From Holophagales bacterium (GTDB lineage: Bacteria > Acidobacteriota > Thermoanaerobaculia > UBA5066), in NCBI GenBank assembly GCA_016714815.1, contig JADKBZ010000003.1:544038-608037 (forward strand): a stretch of 64,000 nt of DNA. The letters are read 5' to 3'. Of the stretch, positions 15,287 through 57,715 are shown in pieces. The position numbers and the translations under genes are program-made. How positions within the stretch are numbered: position 1 is the first letter of the stretch; every line of letters starts with the position of its first letter. The notes beneath the pieces were generated by a model. That model was not told where the DNA came from and did no database searches. It was given only the letters and a program-made list of their open reading frames with translations.

Positions 15287-15287
15287 A

Positions 15288-16992: not shown

Positions 16993-17157
16993 GTGCGCTT
17001 CTCGAAGGGCCGCTCCTATCCTAGACCACGCCAGGCCGGCCCAGCCTCACCGCGCCACCCCGGGTGCGCCCGCCCGGGCAAACGAGACTCACCTCCGGCT
17101 TTCCACGAAGGGAAAGACGCGATAGGGTGCCCCTTCCGTTTAGCGGAGGAGGAAAGC

Positions 17158-20064
17158 ATGAGAGGTCGGATGTGGGTCGCTGGTGCCGTTCTCGCGGCCA
17201 TCGTGAGAGTAGCGAGCGCCGAGAGCACCGGAGCCAACTGGCCGTCCCTGCCCGAGCAGCTGGGCAAGGACAAGGTCCTGGCGGGGAGCGCTCTCGAGGC
17301 GCTGATCAAGGCCAACCAGGATTTCGGAATGCTCCGAGCCGAGGAAGCCAAGGACACGATAAGAGTTCCGCCGTGGCTCCGGGTCGTCTGGAGGAAGTCC
17401 CACCCCGAGGGGGTCTACGTTGCCGACGACCCGACGGGCGGGTACCCCTTCGTCCTGAAGGAGGTCCACGAGTGGATGCTCTCGCACCAGGACCTCCAGC
17501 CGGGGGTTCCGGAAGCCCACGTCCCTCCGGGGCCGAAGGCGGGCGTCGGTACGAACGTGCGCACCTCGGGGCTGCAGACGGTCCCGCGGAGCGAGTCCGA
17601 CATCCGGATCAACTACTGGAACCCGCAGCTCGTCATCGCCTCGTCGAACAACATCGGCGGGAGCGGCCTGCAGGGCCAGTACTACTCGGCCGACGGTGGG
17701 GCGACCTGGGGCCAGACGACGCTCGGCTCGTTGTTCACCGGTGACGCCTTCCACTCCGATCCGACCGCCGACTGGACGTCCGACGGCAAGGCCTGGTCGT
17801 CCACCCTCGGGATCGACAGCGGCGGGAGCGTCCTCAAGGGCCGGATGTACACCTCGGCCGACAACGGCGCGACCTGGGCGCAGGAGGGCACCTGGACCGG
17901 GACCCAGACGAGCGTCGACAAGCAGATGGCCTGGGTCGACCACAGCGCGACCTCCCCATACAAGGACAGGGTCTACGTCATCTACCACAACAACGCGCCG
18001 GCCTTTATGAATCGCAGGACCCCCGGCGTCGCCGGGACCTGGCTCGCGGCACCGATCCAGGTGAGCGGAGCCGAGAGCACCGGGACCTGCATCGGCGGTG
18101 ACGTGAAGTCGAACGCCTACGGGGACGTCTTCGGCTTCTGGCCCACCACGACGAACCGGAGGGTCCTCGTCGTCAAGTCGGTGAACGGCGGGGACAGCTT
18201 CGGGACCCCGGTCCAGGTCGCCACCACCTACGACGGGTACGACATCGGGGTTCCCTCCTTCAACGGCCGGCGAGCCCTGATCTACGTCTCGGCCGGGGCC
18301 TACCGGACCGCCGCGAAGGACATGGTCTACGCCTCCTGGACCGACCTCTCGGGAGAGGCGGGCTGCACGGCCGCCGCCAACGAGCCCGGCTCGAACGTGG
18401 CCTCCACGTGCAAGACGCGGGTCTGGTTCAGCCGCTCGACGAACGGCGGCGCGACCTGGTCCGCCCCGGCGATGATCAACAATCAGGCCTCGCTGAACGA
18501 CCAGTTCAACCAGTGGCTCGCGGTGGACGAGACGTCCGGCGCGATCGCGCTCATGTACTACGACACCGTCGCCGACGCGGGGCGCAAGAAGTCCGACGTC
18601 TGGTACCAGTCGTCGTTCAACGACGGCGCGAGCTGGAACGCGCCCGTCAAGGTGACGACCGCGCAGACCGACGAGACGACCGGGGGACAGGACAGCGGCA
18701 ACCAGTACGGCGACTACAACGGGCTCTCGTACTACGCCGGCGTCGCCTTGCCCGTCTGGACGGACAGGAGGTCCGGGCTCAAGGAAGAGATCTGGACCGC
18801 GAAGGTGACCGACGCGGCCTGCACCGCCCCGGCCGCTCCGACCGCTGGCACCGCGACGGCGACGGGCGCGAACCAGATACAGGTGACCTTCACGAACGGA
18901 GCCCCCCCCTCGTCGACCTACAAGGTCTACCGGGCTCCGGGCACGTGCGCCGCGCCCACGGGGCCCTTCGTCGCGATCGCGTCGAACGTGGCCGCCTCTC
19001 CCTACCTTGACACGACGGTCTCGGGCGGCTCCACCTACGCCTACAAGGTCAGCGGGTTCGAGGTCACGGGAATCTGCGAGTCGACGCAGTCGACCTGCCT
19101 CGAGGCGACGGCGACGGGCGCCTGCACCCTCGCCCCGACGTTCGCCGGGGCCGCGACCGTGACGAACGCCGCGACCGCCTCGTGCCAGCTGGACGTGGCC
19201 TGGTCGGCCGCCACGGCCGGCTGCGCCGGGCCCGTCACCTACAACGTCTACCGCTCTACGACCAGCGGCTTCACGCCGGGTCCGGCCAACCTCGTGGCGT
19301 CGGGTCTCACCGGCACCGTCTGGAACGACGCGACGCCGCTCACCTCCGGCACCCGCTACTACTACATCGTCCGGGCGGTCGACTCGTCGAACTCCGTCGA
19401 GGAGACGAACTCCGCCGAGAAGAGCGGCTTCCCGACGGGTCCGATCGCCGTGGGGACCTTCACCGACACCTTCGAAGGGGCTCTCTCCGGCGGCGGATTC
19501 GACCGGACCGGCTGGACCCACCAGTTCATCGGCGGATCGGTCGACTGGGCCTGGTCCACCGCGGTGACCGCGAACACCCCCACCCACTCCTGGTTCTCCT
19601 CCAGCCAGACCAGCGTCTCGGACCGGATCCTCGTCTCGCCGTCCTTCATCCCGGCGGCCGACTCCGTCCTCACCTTCTTCCACACCTTCAACTTCGAGGG
19701 GACCAGCACCTGCTTCGACGGCGGGACGCTCGAGGTCTCCACGAACGCAGGGGCGACCTGGACGGTCGTCCCCGATGCCGCGTTCACCGCGGGGGGCTTC
19801 ACCGGGACCGTCAGCAGCAGCTTCAGCAACCCGATCGGAGGCAAGCGGGCCTGGTGCTTCGGGACGGTCGGGGCCATGACCCAGGTGACCGTCAACCTGG
19901 CGGCCTACGCCGGCCTCGGCACACAGCTGCGCTGGCACGAGGGCGACGACTCCTCGACCAAGGCCACGGGCTGGTACGTCGACTCCGTCGTGATCACGAA
20001 CGCGGGCTCGGCGTCGGCCTGCAACACGTCGCCCGTCGAGCTGCTGACGTTCAGCGTGGACTGA
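17158..20064 (+). CDS. Large secreted BNR/Asp-box repeat protein with Fn3-like domains, a MAM-like domain and a C-terminal PVELLTFSVD tag
   Basis: Signal peptide; BNR motifs (YSADGGATW, SADNGATW, STNGGATW, FNDGASW); two Fn3-like segments (YKVYRAPGT.., YNVYRSTTSG..); LRWHEGDDS..GWYVDSV; ends PVELLTFSVD. ATG at 17158 preceded by ggaggaggaaagc. Confidence 0.8.
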   Translation: MRGRMWVAGAVLAAIVRVASAESTGANWPSLPEQLGKDKVLAGSALEALIKANQDFGMLRAEEAKDTIRVPPWLRVVWRKSHPEGVYVADDPTGGYPFVLKEVHEWMLSHQDLQPGVPEAHVPPGPKAGVGTNVRTSGLQTVPRSESDIRINYWNPQLVIASSNNIGGSGLQGQYYSADGGATWGQTTLGSLFTGDAFHSDPTADWTSDGKAWSSTLGIDSGGSVLKGRMYTSADNGATWAQEGTWTGTQTSVDKQMAWVDHSATSPYKDRVYVIYHNNAPAFMNRRTPGVAGTWLAAPIQVSGAESTGTCIGGDVKSNAYGDVFGFWPTTTNRRVLVVKSVNGGDSFGTPVQVATTYDGYDIGVPSFNGRRALIYVSAGAYRTAAKDMVYASWTDLSGEAGCTAAANEPGSNVASTCKTRVWFSRSTNGGATWSAPAMINNQASLNDQFNQWLAVDETSGAIALMYYDTVADAGRKKSDVWYQSSFNDGASWNAPVKVTTAQTDETTGGQDSGNQYGDYNGLSYYAGVALPVWTDRRSGLKEEIWTAKVTDAACTAPAAPTAGTATATGANQIQVTFTNGAPPSSTYKVYRAPGTCAAPTGPFVAIASNVAASPYLDTTVSGGSTYAYKVSGFEVTGICESTQSTCLEATATGACTLAPTFAGAATVTNAATASCQLDVAWSAATAGCAGPVTYNVYRSTTSGFTPGPANLVASGLTGTVWNDATPLTSGTRYYYIVRAVDSSNSVEETNSAEKSGFPTGPIAVGTFTDTFEGALSGGGFDRTGWTHQFIGGSVDWAWSTAVTANTPTHSWFSSSQTSVSDRILVSPSFIPAADSVLTFFHTFNFEGTSTCFDGGTLEVSTNAGATWTVVPDAAFTAGGFTGTVSSSFSNPIGGKRAWCFGTVGAMTQVTVNLAAYAGLGTQLRWHEGDDSSTKATGWYVDSVVITNAGSASACNTSPVELLTFSVD

Positions 20065-24208: not shown

Positions 24209-24910
24209 TCACTGGATCTCGAACCTCATGAGCTCGACCGGGGTGTTGGTGTTGATGTGCGCGCGGATCGCAACGGCGGAGACCGTCGAGTACGCGGCGC
24301 CGCAGCCGTTCGGAGCCCACGCGCCCGCAGCGCCCGCATCGCCCGCCGCCGCCCCGGTGAAGGTGATGCAATTGAGCGGCTCGCCCGCTCCCGTCCAGGC
24401 GGCGTTCGCCGAGCCCTGCTGCAGGCCGTCGTTCGGGGTGCCCGTCACGCTGTTGTTCCACCCGCCAGCGTAGAAGTTGCCCGAGGCGATGCTCGGCAGC
24501 GGAGCGACCAGCGGGATCGTCGTCCACGTAGCGACGGTCATGTTGACGGCCAGCTTCCGGTTCAGGATCGTCGTGCCCGCGGCGTCGAACACCGCGACGC
24601 CGTCGAGGACGCCTGCCGCCCCCGTCACTTCCGAGCCGTCGAGTGACGTGGCGAAGACCTCGAGGTCCGTGACGTCGAGCGGGTACGACCCGCCGGCCGG
24701 GATGAACAGGTTCGACAGGTACATGTTGCCTGTCCACGAATAGAAGGCCGCGCTCGCCGGGTCGAGATAGTCGAGCACCACGGCCGCGCTGGGACTGTGT
24801 TCGTTGATGCCCTTGGGCGTCTTGGACTTCTGCCGGGAGATGGGACCCGCCACCACGGCGGCGGAACAGATCAGCAGGCCCAGGGCGCTGATTGCGATCA
24901 GCTTCTTCAT
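24209..24910 (-). CDS. Small secreted protein (233 aa) ending in the PVELMRFEIQ C-terminal tag
   Basis: Signal peptide MKKLIAISALGLLICSAAVVA; Gly/Ala/Thr-rich body; extreme C-terminus NTNTPVELMRFEIQ resembles the C-termini of the BNR protein and the giant beta-helix protein. Confidence 0.7.
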   Translation of the reverse strand: MKKLIAISALGLLICSAAVVAGPISRQKSKTPKGINEHSPSAAVVLDYLDPASAAFYSWTGNMYLSNLFIPAGGSYPLDVTDLEVFATSLDGSEVTGAAGVLDGVAVFDAAGTTILNRKLAVNMTVATWTTIPLVAPLPSIASGNFYAGGWNNSVTGTPNDGLQQGSANAAWTGAGEPLNCITFTGAAAGDAGAAGAWAPNGCGAAYSTVSAVAIRAHINTNTPVELMRFEIQ

Positions 24911-28689: not shown

Positions 28690-29157
28690 TCAGGCCTCTG
28701 CCAGAAACTCGGCGGCCGTCCGGACGAGCAGCGGATCCCCCGGGCTCGACCGGAAATGCCGGACGTTCTCGGTGACGATGACGGACGCGCCACAGCTTCT
28801 CGCGATCGCGGCGATGTGCGCGTCGTAGAGCCGCCCTCCGGCGACCCGCTGCGCCACGGCTGACCTGAAGAAGGAGACTCGCTCACGGACTGGCAGATCG
28901 ACCACCTCGAACCTCCCGAGAATCTCCTCCTCGACGAGGCGGAGCGCATCCGGGGGCGGAAGCCTCAGCTCTTCCGGAAGCCGCGTGGCGACGGCGTAAT
29001 ACTCGAGGCAGCAGTGCCAGGCGGTAAGCGGCCTCTCCACCCTTCCGTCGGCGATCGCGTCCATCACGTTCTGCGCCGCCCGGGTCGAGGGCCCGACGTC
29101 GATCGTCCCGCCCAGAAGGACGCTCGTATCGAGAAAGACCCCCTTCAGCCGGGCCAC
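28690..29157 (-). CDS. vapC: PIN-domain ribonuclease toxin VapC
   Basis: PIN-domain acidic residues (FLDTSVLL ... VVDLPVRE ... VIVTENVRHF). Overlaps the upstream antitoxin gene. Confidence 0.75.
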   Translation of the reverse strand: MARLKGVFLDTSVLLGGTIDVGPSTRAAQNVMDAIADGRVERPLTAWHCCLEYYAVATRLPEELRLPPPDALRLVEEEILGRFEVVDLPVRERVSFFRSAVAQRVAGGRLYDAHIAAIARSCGASVIVTENVRHFRSSPGDPLLVRTAAEFLAEA

Positions 29158-29402
29158 CGGTTGCGCTCCTCGTCGACCAGGGCGGCGAGGTCGATCTGAG
29201 GGAGGTTCCGCTGGGGCACGGTGGGCCTGGCCACGAGGCGCTTCCCGACGCGCGTCAGTTTCGGCTTCGGAACGAGCCGGATCAGCCTCACCGACACGTC
29301 GTCGACGACGATCTCGATCTCGGTTCCCGGGGTCAGGCCCGCCTTCGCCCGGATGGCAGCCGGAATGACGACGCGTCCTGCCTTGTCTATGGCAGATCTC
29401 AT
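29145..29402 (-). CDS. vapB: AbrB/MazE (SpoVT-AbrB) family antitoxin VapB
   Basis: N-terminal swapped-hairpin pattern KAGRVVIPAAIRAKAGLTPGTEIEI; 85 aa; 13-nt overlap with the PIN toxin gene. Confidence 0.75.
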   Translation of the reverse strand: MRSAIDKAGRVVIPAAIRAKAGLTPGTEIEIVVDDVSVRLIRLVPKPKLTRVGKRLVARPTVPQRNLPQIDLAALVDEERNRWPG

Positions 29403-32522: not shown

Positions 32523-32541
32523 ATCGCTTCCGTCCTCTCCT

Positions 32542-39088: not shown

Positions 39089-39117
39089 CCGGAACCCGGA
39101 CTCCCGGTCCGCCGACT

Positions 39118-41031
39118 CTACGGCTTTCCCTTCGCCGGACGCAGGAGCAGAACCCGCGCGCCAGGCGACCCCCAGGCGACGAGCAGCTCGCGGACCTCGC
39201 GGGCCGCGGAGGCGGGCTCCTGGCGGCTCGCGAGGGCGAGGCGCCGCCGCGCGACGACCCTGCCGGCCTCGACGGGCCCGCAGCTCACCGTGACTTCCCC
39301 GCGGGAATTGGCGACCTTCGCGGCGGTGGGTGGCGCCGCCACGGACCACCCCTTTGGAAGCGTCAGCGTCAGCTCGATCTCCTCGCTCCCCGCTCCGGGA
39401 AGCGCGATCGGCGAGAGCCGGCCGGCGCCGGGAAGCGGCGGCAGGTCGTCGGTGACGCCCCCGGCGATTCCGGCGAGCGACACCGCGTGGAGGCCGCGCG
39501 CGTTCTTTTCGGGGAGCGTCCCCTCGAACGTGGCCGAGAGGGACGCCGCGCCGCGCTCGAGCCGCGTCGTCCGGGCGCTCGTCACCTTCGCGCCCTCCAG
39601 CAGGCCGCCGGCGAGGCGCTCGGCGAGCTTCTGCGGGTCGCGGACGAGGCTCGCGTGCGGCGTGGCGCCACCGGCCGAGGTCAGCGCGAGCTCCCCCTTC
39701 ACGCTCCCCTTCTCGTCGATCGTGAGCGACGCCACGAGACGGCTCCGCCACGGCGAGGCGAACGGCGCGAGGTCGAACGGCTTGCCCGGGACGACGACGT
39801 GGGCGCGGTCGAGCGAGCGCTCGAGCGGCCTTGCCGCCGCCGGCTCGGCCGGGTCGTAGAGGCGATCGTCGCCGTCGCCGAAGTGCACCAGGAGAACGGC
39901 CCGGTCGTGGAGCGCAAAGCCCGGGGCGCGGGCCGCCTGCGGGCCGGTCAGGAAGAGCCCGGGACGCGCCTCGAAACCGAGCTCGCCGAGGACGCGCGCC
40001 GCGAGCGAGGCCATCTCGAGCGGCGATGCCCAGCCGGCGGCCCAGACGGAGGCGAGCGGGTGGATCGTCCAGCCCGTGTGGGACGCGGGGAGCGTCGCCG
40101 AGACGTTGATCGCGTCGCCGAGCGCCGAGAGGACGGCGAGAAGGGCGCGCTCGCGGTCCGGCTCCTTGCCGAACGCCTTGCGGGCCGCTTCGATCGCGCC
40201 GGCCGGCGCGGGACCAGCCGCCTCGAAACGCCGCGCGAGCTCGGCACCGGCCCAGCCCGCCGCCGCGGGGGCGCCCGCCGCGAGGAACGCGTACGGCTCG
40301 ATCTCCCCGCGCGCCGGGGTGCCGGGCTCCGACGGAAGCGCCGCGACCCCGTCGGCCTGCCAGCGGCAGGCGCGGACGGCTCCGGTCACCCGGCAGTCGG
40401 GCGGCGGCTCGAGCCCCTGGGGCCCGGGAACGAGAATCTCCAGGCCGGCCGGGACCTCGACCTCGACGACGCGCTGCGCGACGGGAAAGGCGAAGGCGAG
40501 CGGCTCGGCGACGATGAGCGCCGCCGGCGTGGAGGCGGCGCGAGAGACGCGCCACGATGCCTCGATCACGGCGCCCGGCTCGAGCGCCGTGTGGACGATC
40601 ACCCTTCGGCGAAGCGCGCTCCAGAGCGGGTTCCTGTGGACCGCGGGGGGGAGCTCGTCGACGATCGCGTTCGCCGGCCCGGGCACCACCTGGCCCGACG
40701 GGAGAACGGTCCGGTTGAACAGGACCTCGAACGTCTCGACGGAGGGGTCCCAGACGATCCGGCTCTCGCCGAAGTCGCGGTTGATGGCGAGCGACGAGTT
40801 GACCCGGATCCGCTGGGTCCGTTCGTGGACGACGGCGCCGTCGGCGCGGAGCGTGTAGCGGTCGAGGACGAGCAGCGCCTCCGCGTCGGGACCGGCCGGC
40901 GCGACGAAAGCCTTCGGCGCCCTGGCGGTCTGTGGGGCCGCCTTCGTGACGACCTGCGGCTGCGCGGCGAACGCCGCGCCGGCGAAGAGGAGCGAGAGCG
41001 TGGCGAGTCCCTGGCGAACGGAAGCGCGCAT
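39118..41031 (-). CDS. Secreted DUF3857-domain protein (paralog lacking a clear transglutaminase core)
   Basis: Signal peptide; homologous in architecture to the upstream gene. Start at 41031 overlaps the upstream stop (TGATG). Confidence 0.65.
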   Translation of the reverse strand: MRASVRQGLATLSLLFAGAAFAAQPQVVTKAAPQTARAPKAFVAPAGPDAEALLVLDRYTLRADGAVVHERTQRIRVNSSLAINRDFGESRIVWDPSVETFEVLFNRTVLPSGQVVPGPANAIVDELPPAVHRNPLWSALRRRVIVHTALEPGAVIEASWRVSRAASTPAALIVAEPLAFAFPVAQRVVEVEVPAGLEILVPGPQGLEPPPDCRVTGAVRACRWQADGVAALPSEPGTPARGEIEPYAFLAAGAPAAAGWAGAELARRFEAAGPAPAGAIEAARKAFGKEPDRERALLAVLSALGDAINVSATLPASHTGWTIHPLASVWAAGWASPLEMASLAARVLGELGFEARPGLFLTGPQAARAPGFALHDRAVLLVHFGDGDDRLYDPAEPAAARPLERSLDRAHVVVPGKPFDLAPFASPWRSRLVASLTIDEKGSVKGELALTSAGGATPHASLVRDPQKLAERLAGGLLEGAKVTSARTTRLERGAASLSATFEGTLPEKNARGLHAVSLAGIAGGVTDDLPPLPGAGRLSPIALPGAGSEEIELTLTLPKGWSVAAPPTAAKVANSRGEVTVSCGPVEAGRVVARRRLALASRQEPASAAREVRELLVAWGSPGARVLLLRPAKGKP

Positions 41032-43070
41032 CACGCCTTCCCCTTTCCCTTTGCGGCAGCCGGTCTGACGATCAGCGGCGTCTCGGCGAGCTTGCGGAAG
41101 GATTCGAGGGCGTCCCTCAAGGCAGGCCACTCCCCGGGAGCGAAGATGCGGCGGTCGAGGGTGAGCGTCTCGCTCACGACGAGGTCGCTCCCGGAGTGCT
41201 TCCAGCTCGACTGCAGGCTCCCCGCGCCCTCCAGCTTCGCGTCGTCGGGCAGTCCCTCGACCGTGGCGCCCGCCGGCAGGGTCAGCCGCTCCTCGAGGAA
41301 GACCACCTTCGAGCAGCCGATCCTCACCGGGTACTTGCGCTCCTTCGGCTTGAGCGGCAGCGCGATCTCCTCGGCCTTTGCGGCCAGGCCGACCGGGTGG
41401 CGCGCCGCCAGCGGCGTGAGGAGCATCGAGCCGTCGTCGAGGACGCGGGCGTAGCCGGGAATGGAGAACGTGGCCTCGATGGTAAACGGCACCCGCAGGT
41501 CGTCGGGGTCGGTCCGGGACGTAACGCGGACGACCGCCCGCGGATCGACGGCCGAAAGGAGCCCTTCGTCGATCGCCGCCCACTGCGTCCGCGCGCGGCC
41601 CCGGTAGGGGCGGCGCAGGCCCGAGTCGGCCTGCCCGTCGCCCGTGAGCTTCAGCGTTCCCTCGAGGGCGCCGTCCGCGCGCAGAGTGGAGCGGACGGTG
41701 AAGCGGAGCGGGTGGTCCGAGGGCGGCGAGATCGGCGTGGTGATGATGTCCGCCCCTTCGGGCAGCCCCATCAGCACCTCCTGCTGCTGCTCGCGGCTCG
41801 ACCAGAGCTCGCGGGCGCCCGGCACCCACGTCGGGTCGAGGAGCTGCGCCGTGCCGTCGGGACGCCGCCAGACCGTGATGCAGTGGTTGAACTGGTCGGC
41901 GGCGATGTGCTCGATCCGCTCCCCCGCCATCGTCATGCCGGCGTACGCCTCGAGACCGGCGGCGCGCAGGAGGGCGGTGAGAATTCCCGCCTTGTCCTTG
42001 CAGACGCCGCCTCGGTCGCGCAGCGTCATCGCCGCGGGGTGGAGCGTGTAGCCCTCGCCTTCGCCCATGTGCAGGCCGATGTAGCGGATGTTCTCGGCGA
42101 CCCAGTGGGTCAGCGCGGCCGCCTTGTCGTCGGCGCGGTCGAGCCCGGCGGTCACCTCGTCGGCGACGCGCTGCAGCTCCGGCGTCACCGCGAAGGCCTT
42201 CGCGTCCTCCTGGACGCCGTGGAACCAGACCGCCTTCGCCTGCCAGTCGGGCGCCGTCGTCAGCAGGAGCTTCGGCGCGACGTCCGGCCAGTCGACCATG
42301 CTCTTCTCGGCCTCCGCCGGCCTGAAGCCGCGGAGGGTGACCGTCACCGTCCGCTTCCCGCCCGCCGTGCGGTCCTCGACCTCGGCGCCGCCGTTGAAGA
42401 GCTGGTACTGGAGGTTCTTGGCGACCGGGACCGTCACGCGGTAGCGCTGCTCGATCACCGGGTTGGCCGCAAAGAACGGCACGATGTCGTAGAAGTGCCC
42501 GCGCATCGGCGGCACGAAGCGCGCCTCGCCGGCGCCCGGCTCCCCCTCGAGGAGCGCGTAGGTGAAGCCGACCCGCCGCGACACGAGCTCCACGGCGTCG
42601 CCCACGTCGAGCCGGCCGACCGGCACGAGCCGGTGGCGCGCGTTCCAGAGGATCGTCCCCTGCGTGTCGGGGTGGTCCTGGACGAGCGTGACGGCGACGT
42701 CGCGCACGCCGCCCGCGGCCGTCAGGACGCGGCACCGGAGCACTTCGACCGCGGCCGACAGCGGGTCGTACAGGAGCTCGGCGACGGAGAGCTCCCTGGC
42801 GCCGGCCGCCGTGAGCGCCTTGACGAGCGTGTGCTGCACGGTGCGCGCCATGCCGCTCTCCTCGACCTCCACCTCTCGACGGTCGAAGACCGTCACGGCG
42901 CCGGCGGCGGGAAAGGCCTCGGCGCCCCCCGCCTTTGCGAGGACCTTCTGCACGTCGGCGGCCGGCAGGTCCCAGCCCGGGGCGACCTCGGCCGCGGGCG
43001 CTGCGCCGGCGAAAAGGACCAATCCCAGGACCAGGGCGAGAACGTTCAGACGAGGAGCTCGTGCGCGCAT
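41031..43070 (-). CDS. Secreted DUF3857 plus transglutaminase-like cysteine-protease domain protein
   Basis: Signal peptide; transglutaminase-like core with catalytic Cys context (RGGVCKDKAGILTALLRAAGLEAY) and downstream His/Asp region. Confidence 0.75.
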   Translation of the reverse strand: MRARAPRLNVLALVLGLVLFAGAAPAAEVAPGWDLPAADVQKVLAKAGGAEAFPAAGAVTVFDRREVEVEESGMARTVQHTLVKALTAAGARELSVAELLYDPLSAAVEVLRCRVLTAAGGVRDVAVTLVQDHPDTQGTILWNARHRLVPVGRLDVGDAVELVSRRVGFTYALLEGEPGAGEARFVPPMRGHFYDIVPFFAANPVIEQRYRVTVPVAKNLQYQLFNGGAEVEDRTAGGKRTVTVTLRGFRPAEAEKSMVDWPDVAPKLLLTTAPDWQAKAVWFHGVQEDAKAFAVTPELQRVADEVTAGLDRADDKAAALTHWVAENIRYIGLHMGEGEGYTLHPAAMTLRDRGGVCKDKAGILTALLRAAGLEAYAGMTMAGERIEHIAADQFNHCITVWRRPDGTAQLLDPTWVPGARELWSSREQQQEVLMGLPEGADIITTPISPPSDHPLRFTVRSTLRADGALEGTLKLTGDGQADSGLRRPYRGRARTQWAAIDEGLLSAVDPRAVVRVTSRTDPDDLRVPFTIEATFSIPGYARVLDDGSMLLTPLAARHPVGLAAKAEEIALPLKPKERKYPVRIGCSKVVFLEERLTLPAGATVEGLPDDAKLEGAGSLQSSWKHSGSDLVVSETLTLDRRIFAPGEWPALRDALESFRKLAETPLIVRPAAAKGKGKA

Positions 43071-43134
43071 GCCCGGACCTCCGGCGGCATGATAGCGACA
43101 AGGGGATCCGCGGCGGGGACTCGGGAATGGCGGC

Positions 43135-45702
43135 TCAGGCGAAGAGGGCCCCGGACGCGGCGAGAAGAGCCCTCATCTCGGCGGCGCTCCCCGGCCGCCG
43201 GCGCTGCTCGCGCGCCAGACACCGCGCCAGGACGCTTCCCAGGGCGGGAGGCAGCTCGGGGACGAGGACGCACGGGTCGGGGATGACCGGATGGCGCGAC
43301 CGCTGCAGGATCTGGAGCGGGGTCCCACCCGCGAGCGGGTTCGTCCCGGTCGCCGCGTGGTAGAGCACCATCGAGAGCCCCCACAGGTCGAACGACGGGT
43401 CGGGCGGGCCGCCGACGACGGCCTCGGGAGAGATGTAGCCCGGCGTGCCGACGATGCAGTCCGTGCGGGTGTCGCCCATGAGCGGAGTCACGGCGTCGGG
43501 GGTGGGGACGAGGGGCGACGCCGAGGGGCCGAGCGCTCCCTCGCCGCGCCGGTCGAGGTCGACGCGGGCGAGCCCGAAATCGAGGAGCTTCACCTCGCCC
43601 CCCTTCGAGAAGCCGATGTTCGAGGGCTTCACGTCGCGGTGCAGGATGCCGGCGGCGTGAATGGCCTCGAGGGCCGAGGCGATCGCAACCCCGATGCGCA
43701 CCACCTCGGCCGGCGCGAGGCGCCCCTTCCGGATCCGGTCCGCCAGCGTCGCCTCCTCGAGGAGCTCGAAGACGAGGAGCGGCGTCCCGTGCCAGGAATC
43801 GGCCGCGTAGATCAGGGCGAGGTTCGGGTGCGTCACCGCGGCCACGGCGCGCGCCTCGCGGCGCAGGCGGAGCGCGGCCTCGGGCGAGACGCGGGGGAGC
43901 GCCTTGACGGCGACCGGCCGGGCCAGCGCGAGGTCGAGCGCCCGGTAGACGACTCCCATTCCGCCCGCGCCGAGCCGCTTCTCGAAACGGTACTTGCCGG
44001 CGAGAACGAACGGGACCGGGGCGGGGACGAGGACCGACCCGTCGTGGGGGCAGCGCGTCTCCCTCGACGGGTGGAGCGTCGCGCAGGCCGGGCACTCCGC
44101 CGCGGAGCTCTCGGCGGAGAGAAGGTACGGGGTGGCGAGGAGGGCCGGCCCCGGCGTCGGCGTCCGGGCGGGCGGGTGCGAGGACGTGAACCGGAGCAGG
44201 CGGTTCTCGAGCGCGAGCGAGCCGGACGCCGCGATGGCCGAGAGGAGCTTCCGGTCCTCGTCCTGGATCGGCAGCTCGCTCCTCTTCTCGCCGAGGGCGA
44301 TGAGGCCGACGAGAAGGCCGTCGGAAGCGACCATCGGGACGAGCAGGCGGAAGCCGCCGTCGGCGATCCAGACGCGGTCGTCCTCCGGCAGCCGGGATGC
44401 CGGACCGCTCCCCCTCTCGAGCTCGACGGAGAGGGCTTCCGAAGAGGAGCCGAGAAGGCCCGCGAGCGCCGAGGTGGAGTCGAGCGGACGCGCGGACCCG
44501 TCGGGGGCCACGAGCTTCGAAGTCTCGGGATCGAGGGCGAAGACCGTGACCGCGTCCAGGTGGAGCGCCCGGTCGATCTCCGTGGTCAGGAGGGCGGCCA
44601 GCTCGGGCGGGGTCCCCGCGGCGCGCGATCGGGCGGCGAGCTGCGAAAGGATGGTCTGGGCGTCCCACCTCTCGCGGAAGAAGCGCCGGTCGAGCCCGTC
44701 GAGGACCCGGTGGCGTGAAGTGAGGAGGGCGGTCCCGATCGCCGCCGTCGCCAGAAGGCCGAGCGGCCGGACGCCGGAGAAGAGCTCCTTCACCGTCGCG
44801 TCCTGCCTCTCCCAGACGTACGCCACGAGGAGGACGAATGGGGTCACGGCGGCCGCGGCGAGGGTCCAACGCGCGAGGAGGTACTGGAGCGCCCGGCGGA
44901 CGACCAGACGGATGTCGAGAGCCTTGTGGACGAGGACGGAATAGGCCGTCAGGAACGGGACGAGGAGGAGCGTCCCCTTCACGAGAAGCCGGAAGAGGCC
45001 GAGGCCCACCGACGGGTCGCGCGCCCCCATCCCGGGGACGACCGCGTAGAAGATCAGGTAGACCGTCGCCGGGACGAGCCCCACGGCGAGGCCGGCCGTG
45101 AAGAGGGCGACCCGGCGCCGCTCGGTTCGGGGCGCGCGTCGGGCGCGCCAGATCATCGCGGGGAAGACCGGGAGGACGAGGAGCGCGACGATCGGGTAGT
45201 AGAGCGTCGCGTAGTTGTCGGTCCCGCCCGCGAAACGCTCGAGGAGGCCCGTCCGGAGACCGGTCGCCACGTTCCACGTCTTGGCTGCGCCGAGCGCGAC
45301 GCCGGAAGCGAGCGCGACGCGCTCCACCGCCGCCAGGAGGGCGCGCGCCCGCGGACTCGCGAGGGCCTCCGGGAAGAGCGTCACGAAGCGCCAGAGGAAG
45401 TAAGGGAGGAGCGCGTCGACCGAGAGAGCGCGCAGGAGGTGGAGCGCGGAGCCGACGGAGGGCGAGGCGCCCTCCCCTGCTCGCGCGAGGAACGAGACGA
45501 CGAACGACGAGCCCGCGGCGGCGAAACCAGCCGCAAGCACCCTCGCCCGAACGTCGCGCCAGCCGGCGAGCCGAAGGAGGAGCGCAGCAGCCGCGAGAGC
45601 GAGGGCGTGGAGGGCGGCGAAGACGTTCGTGCTGTCCCCGGCGATCTGGGTCGACGGCAAGGCCCCCGCGACCGAAAGAGCGAGGGCGCCGACACCCGCC
45701 AC
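43135..45702 (-). CDS. Membrane-associated sensor Ser/Thr protein kinase (polytopic N-terminal domain, GAF-like domain, Zn-ribbon, kinase)
   Basis: About 7 N-terminal TM helices; GAF-like segment; CPAC...CPHD ribbon; kinase motifs GAGGMGVVYRA, VAVK, HRDVKPSNI, DFGLAR, GTPGYISPE. Confidence 0.85.
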   Translation of the reverse strand: MAGVGALALSVAGALPSTQIAGDSTNVFAALHALALAAAALLLRLAGWRDVRARVLAAGFAAAGSSFVVSFLARAGEGASPSVGSALHLLRALSVDALLPYFLWRFVTLFPEALASPRARALLAAVERVALASGVALGAAKTWNVATGLRTGLLERFAGGTDNYATLYYPIVALLVLPVFPAMIWRARRAPRTERRRVALFTAGLAVGLVPATVYLIFYAVVPGMGARDPSVGLGLFRLLVKGTLLLVPFLTAYSVLVHKALDIRLVVRRALQYLLARWTLAAAAVTPFVLLVAYVWERQDATVKELFSGVRPLGLLATAAIGTALLTSRHRVLDGLDRRFFRERWDAQTILSQLAARSRAAGTPPELAALLTTEIDRALHLDAVTVFALDPETSKLVAPDGSARPLDSTSALAGLLGSSSEALSVELERGSGPASRLPEDDRVWIADGGFRLLVPMVASDGLLVGLIALGEKRSELPIQDEDRKLLSAIAASGSLALENRLLRFTSSHPPARTPTPGPALLATPYLLSAESSAAECPACATLHPSRETRCPHDGSVLVPAPVPFVLAGKYRFEKRLGAGGMGVVYRALDLALARPVAVKALPRVSPEAALRLRREARAVAAVTHPNLALIYAADSWHGTPLLVFELLEEATLADRIRKGRLAPAEVVRIGVAIASALEAIHAAGILHRDVKPSNIGFSKGGEVKLLDFGLARVDLDRRGEGALGPSASPLVPTPDAVTPLMGDTRTDCIVGTPGYISPEAVVGGPPDPSFDLWGLSMVLYHAATGTNPLAGGTPLQILQRSRHPVIPDPCVLVPELPPALGSVLARCLAREQRRRPGSAAEMRALLAASGALFA

Positions 45703-52457: not shown

Positions 52458-55400
52458 CTAGTCGATCGAGAACTCCATGAGCTCGACGGGGGTCGTCCCC
52501 GGTTCGGCGAGCGTCCAGTCGGAGAAGGAGGAGACGCCGGTGATGTTCGCCAGGTTCGACGCGGGCGTCACGGTCCCGCCGGGCGTCGCGTAGGCCGCGC
52601 CGTTGAACTTGTAGATGAGGAAATTGCCTTCCGTCGCCGTCACCGGGACGTCGCCGTCGAGATAGTGGAAGGTGAGGTCGGCGGTGAAGCCCGTTCCCGC
52701 GAGCGTCCAGTACCTCTGGAGAGTGAGGCTCGAGGGGAAGGCGAAGGGCTGCGGCCCCTGAACGGCCGTCACGGTCAGGTCGGCCGGAAAGGTGCCGGCG
52801 GTCGCGCTCGCATCGACGGGCGAGTAGCCGTTCGCGGTCCCGACCGGGAAGGTCGCCGCGCCGGCGCCGCAGAAGCTCTTCTTCACGTTCCCGGTGACGT
52901 AGTTCGTCGCCCCGGCACCGGTCACCGTCGCGTTGCAGCCGAGGGAGAGGGTGCTGGCCCCGGTGCCGAGGATCCCGGTCAGGGTGAGCTCGCTCGTGAC
53001 GGTCACGCCGCCGCCGAGGGTGTTGCCCGTCGTCCCGAGGGCGTTGTAGTAGGTCCCAGCCGGAATCGTCCCGGCGACCGCCTGGACGACCTCGTCCGCA
53101 CCGATGTCGGGGCTTCCCGCCGGGCGCGGATCTCCGTCGAGGTCGGCCACGACGCCGGCGAGCGGAGTCCCCTGGCCGAGAAGCGTGCTGGTCCCCAGCA
53201 GGTGGAGGTCCGTCGCCGACCGGAAGAGGGGGTCCACCGACATCGAGGCGGCGTCCTTCGCCGTCACCCCCTGCCATTGGGCGAGCGTTGCCAGGTCCGT
53301 GCCTCCCGCCGGAGCGATGCTGACGGCCCGACCGACCGCGAAAGATATGCCGGTCGTCACGAAGAGATCGTTGAAGTCGGAGGTGAGGTTCGCGAAGGTG
53401 GAGGAGCCGAGGCCGATGGCGTAGCTGAGGCCGCTCCCGGTCGTCTGGGTGTTCGAGAGGACGTTGCCCCTCACGTCGAGCGCCGGATCGGCTCCGTTGA
53501 CGGCGAGGGCGTACTGCCCCTGGTTCCCTCCCGTCGCCGTGCCGGACATCGATACCGAGTTGTCCCAGACCCGCGTCAGCGAGTCCGTCCCGTTCTCGAC
53601 GACGAAGATGCCGGCGCCGAAGTCCGGACTGGTCCCGTTGGAGAGGACGCCCGAGATGAAGTTGTTCGCGATGAGGTTCGTCCCGGTCGTGGCCGGGGTC
53701 AGGAGGATGCCGGCGGCCGAGTAAGTGGTCGTTTGCTGGACGGTGCCGATGACGTTGCCGGTCACGGTCGCGTTGCTGACCTCGGCTCCGCCGGCAACGA
53801 CGGCGTTGGACCAGCCGGCGAGGCCGCCGAGCGAGATGCCGAACACGTCATTCGACGCCGCCGACACGATCCCGCCGATGGTGTTGCCCGTCACCTGGAT
53901 CCCGTCCTCGTAAGCGACGAGGATCGCCCCCCTCCCGATGGCGGCCGTGCCGGTGTTGTTCAGGACGTTCTGCGTGTACACGTTGCCGGAGTTCTTGTTC
54001 GCGGCGCTCGCTCCCTGCGAGACGACGCCGTACTGGACGCTCCGCACGTCGCAGTTCTGCACGCGGTTTCCGTCGTTGTCGGTGCCGAGGCTGACGACGG
54101 CCGCCCCGCCGAAGACGATGCCGAAGAGCGTCGCGGCGCTCCCGCTCCCGATCACGACGAGGTTCTCGAGCGAGTCGTTCTGGGCCCCGCCGGCGCCGGA
54201 GCTGACGAGGAACACGGCGCTCGCCGTGCTCGTGTCGGCGTTCGTGAAGGTCAGGCTCCGGTCGGTCCCGCCCGACGCCGAGCCGTCGATCGTCACGCGG
54301 TCGGCCCCGTTCAGGCGGATCAGCGCCCGGGGCGAGGCCGTCGTGCTGTCACCTGCGACGCTGAAGGCGCCGCCCGAGGGACGGATCGTCAGCGTGTACC
54401 CGTTCCCGCCCTCCTCGACGAGCTGGTTCAGCGCGACGGCCCCCGTCTCGCCGCTCAGGCTGGAGGTGACGTTCACCGTGACGTCGCCCGTCAGGACGCC
54501 CGCGTTGAGCGCGGCGAAGAGGCCGCCCGGGTTCGTCAGGGAGGTGATCGATTCCGCCGACCCGACGTTCACCGACGAGGCGAAGGGAGCCACGATGGTG
54601 TAGGTGGCGAGCGTCGACGGCGGGGTCGTGATGGAGTTCACGCTGGATCCCGTCACGCCGACCGGGCTCGAGCCGAGGTTCGGCGCCGGCGCCAGGTCCT
54701 GAGCGACGACGAAGGTGTCGACGACGTCGCCCGTGCTCACCCCCCCGAGGAGCGAGTTGTCGACCGTACACGTCCAGGTGCCGTTCACCCCCGTGCCGCC
54801 CGCGAGGGCGCACTGGGTGGAGAAGTAGCTCCCGGCGTTCTTCCGGAAGTAGACGCGCGGCTGCGTCGCACCCGCGGTCGGGACGCCCGTGGCGTCGGAG
54901 ATCGTCGCGGTGAAGGTCCGGTTCACCGTGAGAGTCGTGTTCGCAAGAGGCGTGAAGGTGACGAGCGGGGCGAGGATGTCGAGCGGCACCCCGTCGAACT
55001 CGTCCGCGCCGATGTCGGGGAAGACCGCCCCCCCGTTGACCGAACCCGCCGGACCCGGGCGGGTCTGGAGGTCGTAGTCGGTCGTGATTCCGGCGATCAC
55101 CGCACCGCCGGACTCGATGACCGTCGGCGCGACGCCCATGTTCAGGTGCAGGTCGCTTGCGGCGTTCACGTAGGTGACGCCGATCCCGGAAAAGCTGCTC
55201 GCGTCGCTCGCGGACGCGGCCTGCCAGCCTCCGAAGGTCAGGGCCCCCCCCCACCAGCCGACCGACCCGGCGGCCGCGTTCAGCACGTTGTTGTTCGACG
55301 CGCCGGCTCCCCAGCCGGTGGCGGTCACCGTCGTGGCGCCGTAGTCGTTGGCGATCGCGAGGTGAGCGCCCGTCCCTCCGGAGCGCATGTTCGTGACGAC

Positions 55401-57449
55401 GTTGTTGCGGAAGTCGATCGTCTGCGTTCGCGCCGTCGTGGACGAAAAGTCCGACCGGACGAAGCCGAAGCTCGGCTGGGCCCCCGCGGCCACCGTCCCC
55501 TCGATGTTGATGGTGTTGTAATAGATCCTACTGATGGGGTCGGGCGTCGAGCCGTTGTTCGCCTGGATCCCGATGAAGATCGTGTTCGTCGCCTGCCCGG
55601 TGCCGAGCGAGATCATGTTGTTGACGACGGTGACGTCCGTCGTGCCGGACCGGATGATGATCCCGCCCACCGTCCCCGGGAGGGTCGTGCTCGTCGCCGT
55701 GCTGGCGTTGCTGAGGTCCCAGATCCGGTTCCTCGAGACCGTCGTGCTCGTCGCGTTCGCGAGGCCGATCCCGACGGTGAAGGCCCCCACCGTCCCCGTG
55801 TTCGTGCGGGAGATCGCCGAGATCGTGTTGCCGGAGACGACCGGGTTGAGGCCGGTGCCGACGGCGATCCCGACCGCCCCGGCCGCCCCGTTGGAGATCG
55901 TGGCGCTCGCGCTGTCGGTCGTGAGGTTCGTGATCGTGTTCCCGATGATGGCGAGCGCCGCCGTGCTCCCGGAAGCGCCGGGCGTCCAGATCCCCCTCAC
56001 GTAGCCCGACGTCCCGGTTCCGTAGGACGCGAGGTTCCGGATCGTGTTGCCTGTGACCGCGGTCGTCGTCGACGTCGAGGCCAGGTTGATTCCGGAAACG
56101 ACCGAGCTCCCCGTCGTCAGACCGCTCGTCCCGCCCCGCATGTTGAGTGCGGTCGCGTTTCCGATGGTGTTCCCCGAGATCGTCAGCGAGGTCGCGATTC
56201 CGGAGACGTTGATGCCAGAGACGCCCCCGGCGACGGCGGCGGTCACCCCGGACGACTGAAGCGCGCCGATCAGGTTGTTCTGGAGGACGACGATCCCCGT
56301 CGAGGAGGTGTGGATCCCGACCACGGCTCCCTGCGTCGTCGTCGGGGTCGCGGCGAGGCTCCCCGTCCCCGTCGTGGCGCCGATCGTGTTCGGCGTGACG
56401 GTGCCGACGTTCACGTCACCCGACGTTATGCTGATGCCGCAGAGGACGCCGTACGTCGTCGCGGCGCCGCTCGACGTGCCGAGCGTGATCGCGGCGACGG
56501 TGTTTCCCTGGACGGACGTCGGGGTCGCGTTTCCGACGCCGAGCTCGATCCCGATGAACCGGGTGGCGATCGTCCCCGTCATCGCGGTAACGCCCGTGCC
56601 GGCGGAGTCGGCCCCGCCGACGACGTTCGAGCTGACCGTGTGGCCGCTCCCCGAGAGGATCTGGATGCCGCGGTGGGTGTTGGCCGTCGTGTAGGTCCGC
56701 GTCCCCGTCTGGTAGATCCGGTTCGCGCTGACCGTCCAGCCCGTGTTGTTCGCCCCGACGAGGATGCCGACGGAGACCGTCGACGCGCTGAACGAGTCGG
56801 AGACGTTGGAGCCCTGGATCGCGTTCCCGGAATTCTCGGCGCCGGCGCTCCCGATCGAGAGGATCCCGTTCGTGGCGAGGTTCGCCCCCGCCGGCCCGAC
56901 GTTGCATAGAGAGACGGTGTTGCCGTCGTTGCCCGTCGTCGTGCCGGTGGAGAAGAGGATCGTCCCCGACGTGACGCTCGTCGACGACCCGAGCAGCGTC
57001 GCGTTCGTGACGGTGTTGCCCGTCGCGTCGTTGACGAAGCGGATCGTCGAGGCGCCCGTGGCGGCGCTCGTGTTCGAGATTGTCAGCCCGTTGCCGCCCG
57101 TGCCGAGACCGTCGATCGTCACGGCGTCCGCGCCGTTTAGGTCGACGAGCGGCCCGGCCACGGCGCCGGAGACCGTCCGGAGGGCGCCGCCCGATGGAGC
57201 CACGAGAATCGTCGTGTAGAGCGCGCCGCCGGAGCCGCTCGCGTTCAGGGCGGCCGAGGCGGCTTCCGTCGTGTCGCCGGTCAGGCTGACCGTGATTGCC
57301 CCCTGGTGGGTCCCCAGGTTGACCGCGTCGAACGCGTCTTTCACGGTCGCGTACGTGGACGGCCCCGTCGTCCCGGCGGTCGCCGTCACCGACACCTGGG
57401 CGGCCGCGCCCGCGCCGACGAGCAACGAGGCGAGCAGCAGGGACGTCAT
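52458..57449 (-). CDS. Giant secreted right-handed parallel beta-helix repeat protein (1663 aa, adhesin/polysaccharide-lyase-like) ending in the PVELMEFSID tag
   Basis: Signal peptide MTSLLLASLLVGAGAAAQ; many NxxIxGN-type beta-helix repeats; Thr/Gly/Ser-rich; extreme C-terminus GTTPVELMEFSID. The tracked ORF start is over-extended; the ATG is at 57449. Confidence 0.8.
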   Translation of the reverse strand: MTSLLLASLLVGAGAAAQVSVTATAGTTGPSTYATVKDAFDAVNLGTHQGAITVSLTGDTTEAASAALNASGSGGALYTTILVAPSGGALRTVSGAVAGPLVDLNGADAVTIDGLGTGGNGLTISNTSAATGASTIRFVNDATGNTVTNATLLGSSTSVTSGTILFSTGTTTGNDGNTVSLCNVGPAGANLATNGILSIGSAGAENSGNAIQGSNVSDSFSASTVSVGILVGANNTGWTVSANRIYQTGTRTYTTANTHRGIQILSGSGHTVSSNVVGGADSAGTGVTAMTGTIATRFIGIELGVGNATPTSVQGNTVAAITLGTSSGAATTYGVLCGISITSGDVNVGTVTPNTIGATTGTGSLAATPTTTQGAVVGIHTSSTGIVVLQNNLIGALQSSGVTAAVAGGVSGINVSGIATSLTISGNTIGNATALNMRGGTSGLTTGSSVVSGINLASTSTTTAVTGNTIRNLASYGTGTSGYVRGIWTPGASGSTAALAIIGNTITNLTTDSASATISNGAAGAVGIAVGTGLNPVVSGNTISAISRTNTGTVGAFTVGIGLANATSTTVSRNRIWDLSNASTATSTTLPGTVGGIIIRSGTTDVTVVNNMISLGTGQATNTIFIGIQANNGSTPDPISRIYYNTINIEGTVAAGAQPSFGFVRSDFSSTTARTQTIDFRNNVVTNMRSGGTGAHLAIANDYGATTVTATGWGAGASNNNVLNAAAGSVGWWGGALTFGGWQAASASDASSFSGIGVTYVNAASDLHLNMGVAPTVIESGGAVIAGITTDYDLQTRPGPAGSVNGGAVFPDIGADEFDGVPLDILAPLVTFTPLANTTLTVNRTFTATISDATGVPTAGATQPRVYFRKNAGSYFSTQCALAGGTGVNGTWTCTVDNSLLGGVSTGDVVDTFVVAQDLAPAPNLGSSPVGVTGSSVNSITTPPSTLATYTIVAPFASSVNVGSAESITSLTNPGGLFAALNAGVLTGDVTVNVTSSLSGETGAVALNQLVEEGGNGYTLTIRPSGGAFSVAGDSTTASPRALIRLNGADRVTIDGSASGGTDRSLTFTNADTSTASAVFLVSSGAGGAQNDSLENLVVIGSGSAATLFGIVFGGAAVVSLGTDNDGNRVQNCDVRSVQYGVVSQGASAANKNSGNVYTQNVLNNTGTAAIGRGAILVAYEDGIQVTGNTIGGIVSAASNDVFGISLGGLAGWSNAVVAGGAEVSNATVTGNVIGTVQQTTTYSAAGILLTPATTGTNLIANNFISGVLSNGTSPDFGAGIFVVENGTDSLTRVWDNSVSMSGTATGGNQGQYALAVNGADPALDVRGNVLSNTQTTGSGLSYAIGLGSSTFANLTSDFNDLFVTTGISFAVGRAVSIAPAGGTDLATLAQWQGVTAKDAASMSVDPLFRSATDLHLLGTSTLLGQGTPLAGVVADLDGDPRPAGSPDIGADEVVQAVAGTIPAGTYYNALGTTGNTLGGGVTVTSELTLTGILGTGASTLSLGCNATVTGAGATNYVTGNVKKSFCGAGAATFPVGTANGYSPVDASATAGTFPADLTVTAVQGPQPFAFPSSLTLQRYWTLAGTGFTADLTFHYLDGDVPVTATEGNFLIYKFNGAAYATPGGTVTPASNLANITGVSSFSDWTLAEPGTTPVELMEFSID

Positions 57450-57715
57450 CGTCGCGAGACGCACGCTCTTCGAGTTCAGGGATTCCCCGGCTGTTTGTCG
57501 CACTCTTCCTCCGCGGTCACTCGGCCCCTCCAATCCCACGTTCAACGGGAAGAGCCAGTCGGCAGCGAAAGACGAAGGGGACTACCGAGCTGGTCTGGCC
57601 GTGGGAAGGAAAGCCCGGGTGACGAACGACGCACGCTATCGCGCAGGGGAAGACCCGTCAAACCGCCGGATCTCGACGACTGCCCGTCCGAAAGGCCGCC
57701 GCCGCCGATAATCGA

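Follow-up and report, generated by a model that had tools for sequence, protein, structure and literature searches.

A short C-terminal tag on unrelated exported proteins of Acidobacteriota suggests an undescribed route by which secreted proteins are sorted or anchored

The stretch of DNA analyzed here (hereafter the window) comprises 64,000 nucleotides from a Holophagales bacterium (Acidobacteriota; assembly GCA_016714815.1, contig JADKBZ010000003.1, positions 544,038 to 608,037; G+C content 70%) and encodes three unrelated exported proteins that end in one short tag, PVEL[ML]xFx[IV][DQ], directly followed by a stop codon. The carriers (Table 1), each annotated as a hypothetical protein in the source record (PGAP), are a beta-helix protein whose last domain reads ..NGYSPV..LQRYWTL..SFSDWTLAEP (C-terminus ...AEPGTTPVELMEFSID-stop, likewise GTTPVELMEFSID-stop), a BNR/Fn3/Reelin-subrepeat-B-like protein (...CNTSPVELLTFSVD-stop, likewise NTSPVELLTFSVD-stop) and a jelly-roll beta-sandwich protein of 233 residues (...INTNTPVELMRFEIQ-stop, likewise NTNTPVELMRFEIQ-stop), all three with a Sec-type signal peptide at the N-terminus. 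The mechanical open reading frame (ORF) of the beta-helix protein spans 52458-57545 on the minus strand (1695 aa), and that of the BNR/Fn3 protein 16993-20064 on the plus strand (1023 aa); the database record of the latter, MBK8595544.1, starts MRGRMW and is 968 aa long.

A six-frame regular-expression search of the window finds PVEL..F at three places only, with the stop codon three residues past each Phe, and the back-translated tag pattern CCNGTNGARCTNMTGNNNTTY gives three matches where 0.00 are expected (100 shuffles); the three sequences are as an earlier note on this DNA had claimed. Its description of a Thr/Asn-rich linker ahead of the tag holds in a broader form, the preceding residues being rich in G, N, S, T and D in all three proteins. 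Neither a transmembrane (TM) helix nor a basic tail follows the tag in any of the three, and a G+C-rich inverted repeat of the terminator type (judged by eye) lies 3' of each stop codon; because of these repeats we regard the tags as true protein ends and discount readthrough or an ORF continuing past the tag. No C-terminal sorting model of Pfam or NCBIfam matches the three proteins at E≤1, and we concur with the note that an element of 10–11 residues with these properties is unlike PEP-CTERM, LPXTG, Myxo-CTERM and the C-terminal domain (CTD) signal of type IX secretion systems (T9SS).

Conservation, spread and modularity of the tag

Scans of public genomes and metagenomes bring the number of tagged ORFs to ~240, nearly all with Sec signal peptides and drawn from soil and wastewater bacteria, and define the consensus [VLIT]-P-V-E-L-M-x-F-x-[VI]-[ED]-COOH, a conserved element of 10–11 residues. 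The genome scan (one genome per GTDB species, pattern plus stop codon) returned at least 117 loci. Among the matches listed, 120 ORFs end in [VLIT]PVEL[ML]xFx[VI][EDNQ]; their hosts are almost all Acidobacteriota (Thermoanaerobaculia, Holophagae, Vicinamibacteria, Acanthopleuribacteraceae), with a few Gammaproteobacteria (Wenzhouxiangella, two Tahibacter, and metagenome-assembled genomes (MAGs) of Lysobacterales, Marinicellaceae and 'Alcanivoracaceae') and single MAGs of other phyla, and only two matches, in Prevotella and Lacibacter, resemble chance.

The terminal position of the tag does not depend on the search pattern. A metagenome scan with PVELMxFx[VIM]E, free of any stop constraint, gave 133 matches, in 113 of which the stop follows immediately; about eight carry short acidic extensions, and the remainder are unrelated proteins such as DNA methylases. 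Relaxed matching over 889 kb of six-frame translation places the stop exactly three residues past the aromatic residue in 126 of 129 cases. Position −11, which no pattern constrained, is V, L, I or T (2.4 bits), and the tag closes with E, D, N or Q. The tag is kept in all 24 homologues of the 233-aa protein (43–88% identity), PVELMR being invariant where the body is ~45% identical. The earlier note had named a lack of C-terminal enrichment, or of the tag in orthologs, as what would speak for chance or a strand of no sorting significance; homologues keep the tag and the motif is strongly C-terminal in public data, so neither objection holds. A Cys-rich small family (..SCxWxC..DGLPVELMxF..E; loci L130, L141, L178, L187, L207, L216, L225) places a short acidic extension (E, GDLPQP, QSDE, KADDPQPDTED..) and not a stop after the tag, and thus constitutes a family-specific exception to the strict terminal rule.

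BLAST clustering sorts the 217 tagged ORFs that reach 100 aa or more into 82 groups, and most of the complete ones have signal-peptide-like N-termini. The tag follows proprotein-convertase P-domains, a GEVED domain, a subtilase, propeller-like repeats, Cys-rich small proteins or plain Pro/Thr linkers. These linkers, together with an AlphaFold2 (AF2) model of the 233-aa protein (pLDDT, a per-residue confidence score, 77.8) in which the sandwich is confident and tag residues 226–233 score below 50 and lie unpacked against the fold, rule out the tag as a part of the preceding fold. The tag is a genuine, modular feature of Sec-exported proteins. A soil/rhizosphere family of ~430 aa, with a signal peptide, seven or eight 'GNFVVVWxSxxQDGSxxGVFGQRY' repeats and the tag at its end (L152, L140, L162, L151), is encoded by genes in tandem, as many as six of them within 7.7 kb.

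A full HMMER search with the last 354 residues of the BNR protein reveals what takes the place of the tag in homologues. In representatives, the same Fn3 plus Reelin-like module is followed by a T9SS CTD, by an IPTL-CTERM or Myxo-CTERM-like tail, by a TM helix with an Arg-rich tail, by other terminal modules, or by variant tags (..MPVALTGYSVE, ..TVQLLGFDAE). Such swapping of endings is a 'choice-of-anchor' pattern and argues for a sorting or anchoring role of the tag.

Other recurrent endings were seen among these homologues. Many close with the motif 'ΦΦFxDGFExGxxxxWSxxxP' and others with '...S/TxTCP' (proteins with endings of either type are P0216, P0229, P0236, P0255, P0258, P0273, P0282, P0299, P0309, P0322, P0324, P0329 and P0353). 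A further alternative, for which we found no name, is the module 'hxFx[IV]PPCRxxDTR ... DVNGYF' (PPCR module), which in the window ends two other exported proteins.

An Fn3-like domain without its first strand, and the neighbours of tagged genes

Past ..SFSDWTLAEP, homologues of the beta-helix protein continue with the tag (P0154), with a CarboxypepD_reg domain or with a complete Fn3-like domain. The last begins, at the position of the tag, with A-P-T-[DA]-V-x-L-x-x-F-x-A and runs on as V-x-L-x-W-x-T..E..N-L-G-F-x-Y-R ... S-Y-x-W-x-D ... Y-W-L-E ... W-H-G-P; it is of the type 'W-x-T-A-S-E ... G-F-x-V-x-R', for which neither Pfam nor NCBIfam holds a model, just weak Fn3-type matches being returned. 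MAFFT places TPVELMEFSIQ on the first strand of this domain, with T and F invariant, and AF2 predicts LVSFTADSFA and SNVLRWQT as consecutive strands of the whole domain (a weak model, mean pLDDT 52). On this alignment the tag looks like beta-strand A of an Fn3-like C-terminal domain. The note's low-confidence proposal that the tag is a truncated PPCR strand (hxFx[IV]PPCRxxD) has to be dropped: the PPCR module is a different C-terminal module that bears no resemblance to the tag, which aligns instead with PT-x-V-x-L-x-x-F-x-A of the Fn3-like domain.

With a hidden Markov model (HMM) built on the Fn3-like domain, small lipoproteins of ~100 aa come up in tag loci that match only from HMM position 11–20 onward. 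In these candidate receptors (lipoboxes VMAGC, LLGC, AAGAC, LCGC, TAVAC), a Pro/Ala-rich linker joins the lipobox Cys to strand B (N-T-L-x-W-S-T-A-S-E), and the top hit in the PDB is to an Fn3-like protein, with the alignment starting at its residue 22. Judged by sequence alone, the two partners form a set of an Fn3/Ig-like acceptor from which one strand is missing and a donor that bears this strand.

A search of the window with the receptor HMM gave no receptor gene. Immediately upstream of the gene for the tagged 233-aa protein lies a 236-aa ORF, which has a conserved P..PPPR end and homologues directly upstream of tagged genes of other families (L094, L010, L131, L221); it was considered and rejected for this role, since a first strand seems to be present in it and the receptor HMM gives no match to it. 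At four further loci (cluster 28: L018, L029, L062, L078) a secreted protein of ~270 aa with the Fn3-like pattern 'HRVQLRWVVRE..GYRVTLV' (for example L062 3172-3984, minus strand) is encoded directly upstream of tagged P-domain genes, in the order HlyD, MacB, MacB, the ~270-aa gene, one or two tagged genes and a sulfatase-fold gene of the kind described next; this protein may be a second kind of receptor.

Clustering of all ORFs of the tag loci shows two untagged neighbours to be the most frequent: a PpiC-type parvulin lipoprotein of 560–610 aa (hereafter PPI; homologues in 46 loci), followed by a lipoprotein of ~720 aa that joins a sulfatase fold to tetratricopeptide repeats (TPR; hereafter SULF-TPR; 39 loci). 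Directly upstream of a PPI gene lie 23 tagged genes of several BLAST clusters, with SULF-TPR next in most; this order includes the 233-aa gene of the window and gammaproteobacterial loci, and P-domain tagged genes are followed by SULF-TPR with no PPI gene between. In the window PPI protein, SurA/PrsA/PpiD-like flanks surround the parvulin domain. The window cassette SULF-TPR has its TPR domain at aa ~470–700 and the active-site sequence T-G-P-S-H in place of C/S-x-P-x-R; a second, divergent sulfatase-like TPR lipoprotein is encoded nearby. All 29 cassette SULF homologues with a locatable motif read T-x-P-[SA]-H, except one with T-L-P-A-F. As this replaces C/S-x-P-x-R, no formylglycine can form, and the SULF-TPR proteins would probably use Thr as the nucleophile.

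The candidate receptors lie beside a third kind of partner, Peptidase_C25 proteins of ~750–1000 aa (Pfam E 1e-69 to 1e-81), which occur in seven tag loci and in the extended Wenzhouxiangella locus, adjoining tagged genes of several families. They match the NCBIfam PorU sortase model (NF033707) at E 1e-52 to 1e-64, three of four over positions 8–740 of 1095 and that of L087 over just 345–768, and retain the His/Cys dyad (GHGGR and MTCY[ST]APFDHP / SMSCNTG conserved). A single operon at L053 encodes receptor, C25, tagged gene, PPI and SULF-TPR in order; at L082 C25 and receptor are fused in one ORF, followed by the tagged gene; at L087, L175 and L217 the tagged gene adjoins C25; and L094 shares the gene order of the window cassette, with C25 after SULF-TPR. 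In the cultured Wenzhouxiangella sp. EGI_FJ10409 (tag peptide ..NILPVELMEFGVE), all five genes lie within 12 kb, together with an IPTL-CTERM protein; the receptor gene is at about 121677-122054 of JBHJMR010000003.1 and the C25 gene at about 131411-133681. C25 genes are rare in genomes, and by a rough estimate seven of them in ~1.5 Mb of tag-flanking DNA would amount to well over tenfold enrichment.

CLIPPER/DUF11-repeat proteins with an IPTL-CTERM-type ending (IAVPTLGSW..TM..RRR) are encoded directly after a PPI/SULF-TPR pair both in Wenzhouxiangella (L248 15368-17392) and in Pseudomarimonas arenosa (L245 5986-8130). No sorting enzyme is known to act on IPTL-CTERM, and the C25 peptidase encoded nearby is a candidate for this role.

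Genes for an exosortase, a sortase or a rhombosortase were not seen near tagged genes, and T9SS core genes (Sov, PorK/L/M/N, PorV) are absent among the recurrent neighbours at tag loci, whole genomes not having been scanned. Of the recurrent partners (PPI, SULF-TPR, C25 and receptor) the window holds just the first two.

Elsewhere in the window, a DUF3857/transglutaminase gene sits in an apparent four-gene operon (37286-45702, minus strand); kinase plus TPR genes and DUF3857/transglutaminase genes recur near tagged genes at other loci. Between the region of the second sulfatase-like gene and the ALGX genes lies a MazE-antitoxin/PIN-domain toxin pair, and an MBOAT gene with two ALGX-domain genes, an alginate-type polysaccharide O-acetylation set, adjoins surface-protein genes.

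Table 1. Tagged genes, tags and other features of the window, with positions counted from its first letter.
Feature	Position	Strand	Remarks
Tagged beta-helix protein, 1663 aa	52458..57449	-	Sec-type signal peptide; Met at 57449
Tag TPVELMEFSID of the beta-helix protein	52461..52493	-	stop codon 52458-52460
Tagged BNR/Fn3/Reelin-subrepeat-B-like protein, 968 aa	17158..20064	+	Sec-exported
Tag SPVELLTFSVD of the BNR/Fn3/Reelin-like protein	20029..20061	+	stop codon 20062-20064
Tagged jelly-roll beta-sandwich protein, 233 aa	24209..24910	-	Sec-exported; first cassette gene
Tag TPVELMRFEIQ of the 233-aa protein	24212..24244	-	stop codon 24209-24211
PPI lipoprotein, 562 aa	22357..24045	-	second cassette gene; lipobox ..SGAGC; PpiC-type parvulin aa 123-252
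SULF-TPR lipoprotein, 719 aa	20211..22370	-	third cassette gene; lipobox ..VSAC; sulfatase fold aa 32-313
ORF directly upstream of the tagged 233-aa gene, 236 aa	24958..25668	-	signal/TM segment; Fn3-like pattern
Second sulfatase-like TPR lipoprotein, 643 aa	25763..27694	+	lipobox ..SVGC; active site I-T-V-A-A-H
MazE-antitoxin/PIN-domain toxin pair	28690-29402	-	
MBOAT gene and two ALGX-domain genes	29813-33998	-	
Vgb_lyase-like protein	14610-15287	+	PPCR C-terminal module; motif near 14849
M14 carboxypeptidase, 1005-1108 aa	33938-37264	+	PPCR C-terminal module; motif near 36893
598-aa protein	37286-39082	-	no Pfam match; apparent operon
DUF3857 protein	39118-41031	-	apparent operon
DUF3857 plus transglutaminase-core protein, 679 aa	41031..43070	-	secreted; intact Cys-His-Asp triad; possible accessory
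Ser/Thr kinase (GAF+Pkinase)	43135-45702	-	apparent operon

Readings of the tag

The earlier note had offered a recognition peptide and a complementing terminal strand as alternatives; the comparative evidence, with C25 peptidases and strand-lacking Fn3 lipoproteins as neighbours, suggests that the tag may be both. We hold with moderate confidence, neither leaning further toward acceptance nor toward doubt, that the tag would act as a C-terminal sorting or docking signal, its strand A docking on strands B–G carried by a separate protein, with the C25 peptidase involved. More tentatively, we propose a split sorting domain, in which the cargo keeps strand A as a tag of ten residues and a lipoprotein or sortase carries strands B–G. 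Such a natural tag-and-catcher could tie dozens of unrelated exported enzymes in each genome to the envelope and pass them on to a PorU-like transpeptidase working without the T9SS.

On the first of these two readings, strands B–G would be encoded apart, as a lipoprotein of ~100 aa or as a domain fused to C25. After Sec export the flexible tag would pair with the exposed strand B of the receptor (strand complementation), tethering the cargo to its lipid-anchored partner and presenting it to the PorU-like C25 peptidase, which, as PorU does in type IX secretion, would cleave the signal and might also pass the cargo on to an acceptor at the cell surface. The PpiC-type lipoproteins, as chaperones, and the sulfatase-like TPR lipoproteins, with their presumed Thr nucleophile, would assist.

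Several observations weigh against this scheme. The window, searched for both, has neither a C25 gene nor a receptor gene, and C25 or receptor genes are found in just seven or eight of ~240 loci, most of which are ≤8 kb. The C25 proteins score 178–216 bits, where the PorU cutoff is 420, and the C-terminal part of PorU is missing from them. For the whole Fn3-like domain, the AF2 model is too weak to be read beyond its predicted secondary structure. The IPTL-CTERM protein of the Wenzhouxiangella locus could be the real substrate of the C25 peptidase, and the Pseudomarimonas PPI/SULF-TPR pair adjoins an IPTL-CTERM-like protein, 15.7 kb of sequence there being free of the tag. The SULF-TPR architecture (at least 1483 matches) extends far beyond the tag-bearing taxa, its distant members standing alone with no tag nearby, and the PPI family is likewise wider; in this reverse test from homologues SULF-TPR is thus no specific marker of the tag, and both families, being wider than it, are likely to be helpers and not the specificity determinant. 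Finally, mimicry of strand A leaves the near-invariant terminal acidic residue and the strict three-residue spacing unexplained. Our confidence is held at a moderate level by this residue, by an association of tag, C25 and receptor that was counted at loci and not as genome-wide co-occurrence, by the IPTL-CTERM proteins in two loci and by the PorU scores below cutoff.

An alternative that we consider unlikely is that the free C-terminus of the tag is bound by the TPR domain of SULF-TPR or of TPR-only neighbours. A lipoprotein acting as enzyme or scaffold would then recruit the cargo, to modify it or to assemble it non-covalently, and C25 and the Fn3 lipoprotein would be incidental. The carboxylate clamp is established for TPR domains, and the [VI]-[ED]-COOH ending, with its constant spacing to the terminus, would suit one; SULF-TPR is the second most frequent neighbour, following P-domain tagged genes even where PPI is absent, and TPR-only proteins occur in 11 tag loci. 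The sheer breadth of the SULF-TPR family and its tag-free distant members speak against this alternative too, however, and it leaves the strand-A-less Fn3 domain in the same operons unexplained.

We think it improbable that the tag is instead an outer-membrane export signal, read on the periplasmic side by a MacAB/HlyD-type tripartite pump, a type II secretion system or an unknown pore, with no docking. All cargo is Sec-dependent and much of it looks extracellular, and HlyD-type genes lie near tagged genes in seven loci and MacB_PCD/FtsX permease genes in five. MacB/FtsX-type permeases are, however, very numerous in Acidobacteria, so their frequency here is about that of the background, and we judged the MacB, HlyD and ABC neighbours accordingly; pump genes are far rarer neighbours than PPI and SULF-TPR, and show no conserved adjacency across tagged families, the P-domain cassette excepted.

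A little less probable again is processing or cross-linking of the tag by secreted DUF3857/transglutaminase-like cysteine enzymes and not by C25. Genes for such enzymes lie 4–16 bp upstream of tagged genes of two families (L007 and L017; L105), and the copy in the window retains its catalytic triad, yet there are only four occurrences in all, the window copy does not adjoin a tagged gene, and the literature yielded no function for the family. That the tag is an evolutionary remnant or small edge strand of a truncated Fn3-like domain, with no sorting role, would fit its match to the opening strand of a domain found whole in some homologues, but is scarcely credible for an element near-invariant over 82 unrelated families and across phyla while the bodies diverge, often parted from them by Pro/Thr linkers, left unpacked by AF2 and ending at a fixed point where a remnant would be expected to decay.

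Relation to known systems and significance

The T9SS, with its type A CTD and PorU sortase (PMC4560394, PMC8545088), is described as a Bacteroidota/FCB system (PMC10202324). Like T9SS cargo, tagged proteins are Sec-exported and bear their signal, which lacks a TM helix, at the very C-terminus; next to the cargo genes lies one for a C25-family cysteine peptidase that is homologous to PorU along most of its sequence, and T9SS CTDs occupy the exact position of the tag in homologous proteins. Unlike it, the tag has 10–11 residues in place of a folded Ig-like CTD of 70–100 aa, is not matched by TIGR04183 or PF18962, and belongs to Acidobacteriota and Gammaproteobacteria; its C25 peptidases differ from PorU in score and extent, as noted above, and the folded part of the signal is apparently supplied in trans. 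On the best-supported reading, the tag system is akin to type IX secretion at its CTD/PorU step, with the folded signal domain split.

With the TM-type signals (PEP-CTERM/exosortase, LPXTG, Myxo-CTERM, IPTL-CTERM, GlyGly-CTERM; PMC1569441, PMC3237569), the tag shares the many-to-one relationship of a short C-terminal signature to many unrelated exported proteins per genome. PEP-CTERM systems also resemble the tag system in a PpiC-type isomerase and TPR lipoproteins, with weak matches here to EpsD (TIGR02925) and PrsT (TIGR02917), and IPTL-CTERM proteins share loci with PPI/SULF-TPR genes in Wenzhouxiangella and Pseudomarimonas. In those signals a hydrophobic helix and a cluster of basic residues come after the signature motif, whereas tagged proteins end three residues after the conserved Phe.

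Three further comparisons concern the form of the tag. The outer-membrane beta-signal is an aromatic C-terminal residue (Phe/Trp) on a beta-barrel, whereas the tag ends in E, D, N or Q and its cargo comprises soluble folds (beta-helix, BNR, jelly roll). Donor-strand complementation, known from chaperone-usher and type V pili and from the engineered split domains SpyTag/SpyCatcher, would resemble our proposal in that a short terminal beta-strand completes the Ig/Fn3-like sandwich of another chain and a periplasmic chaperone is encoded alongside; here, however, the donors are many unrelated enzymes and adhesin-like proteins and not pilins, the acceptor is a lipoprotein or peptidase domain, there is no usher, and no isopeptide chemistry is implied. 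Recognition of C-terminal peptides by TPR proteins (EEVD of Hsp70/90 by Hop and CHIP; PTS1 by PEX5) likewise involves strictly terminal, short hydrophobic-acidic-COOH motifs, and TPR proteins are encoded beside the tag, but those systems are cytosolic and eukaryotic, whereas the tag belongs to the periplasm or cell surface.

Literature searches found no published description of the tag motif, nor of PorU-like peptidases in the tag-bearing phyla or of a strand-A-less lipoprotein, and nothing relevant on secretion in Wenzhouxiangella; the models and source names examined contain none of the three either. The tag suggests a sorting or anchoring route for secreted proteins that has yet to be described.

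Acidobacteriota rank with the most abundant bacteria of soil and wastewater, and little is known, to our knowledge, of the ways in which their many extracellular enzymes are displayed or released. If our reading is true, the tag would mark the substrates of one pathway, making secretomes predictable from genomes and hundreds of 'hypothetical proteins' open to annotation; a PorU-like sortase outside the Bacteroidota, acting on a signal whose fold comes in trans, would extend what is known of protein sorting in diderms, and the peptide and domain would offer a natural docking pair for protein engineering. The cultured Wenzhouxiangella, with the whole gene set in one locus, makes the idea directly testable. 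Should the split-domain proposal also prove true, it could describe a main route of surface display in Acidobacteriota.

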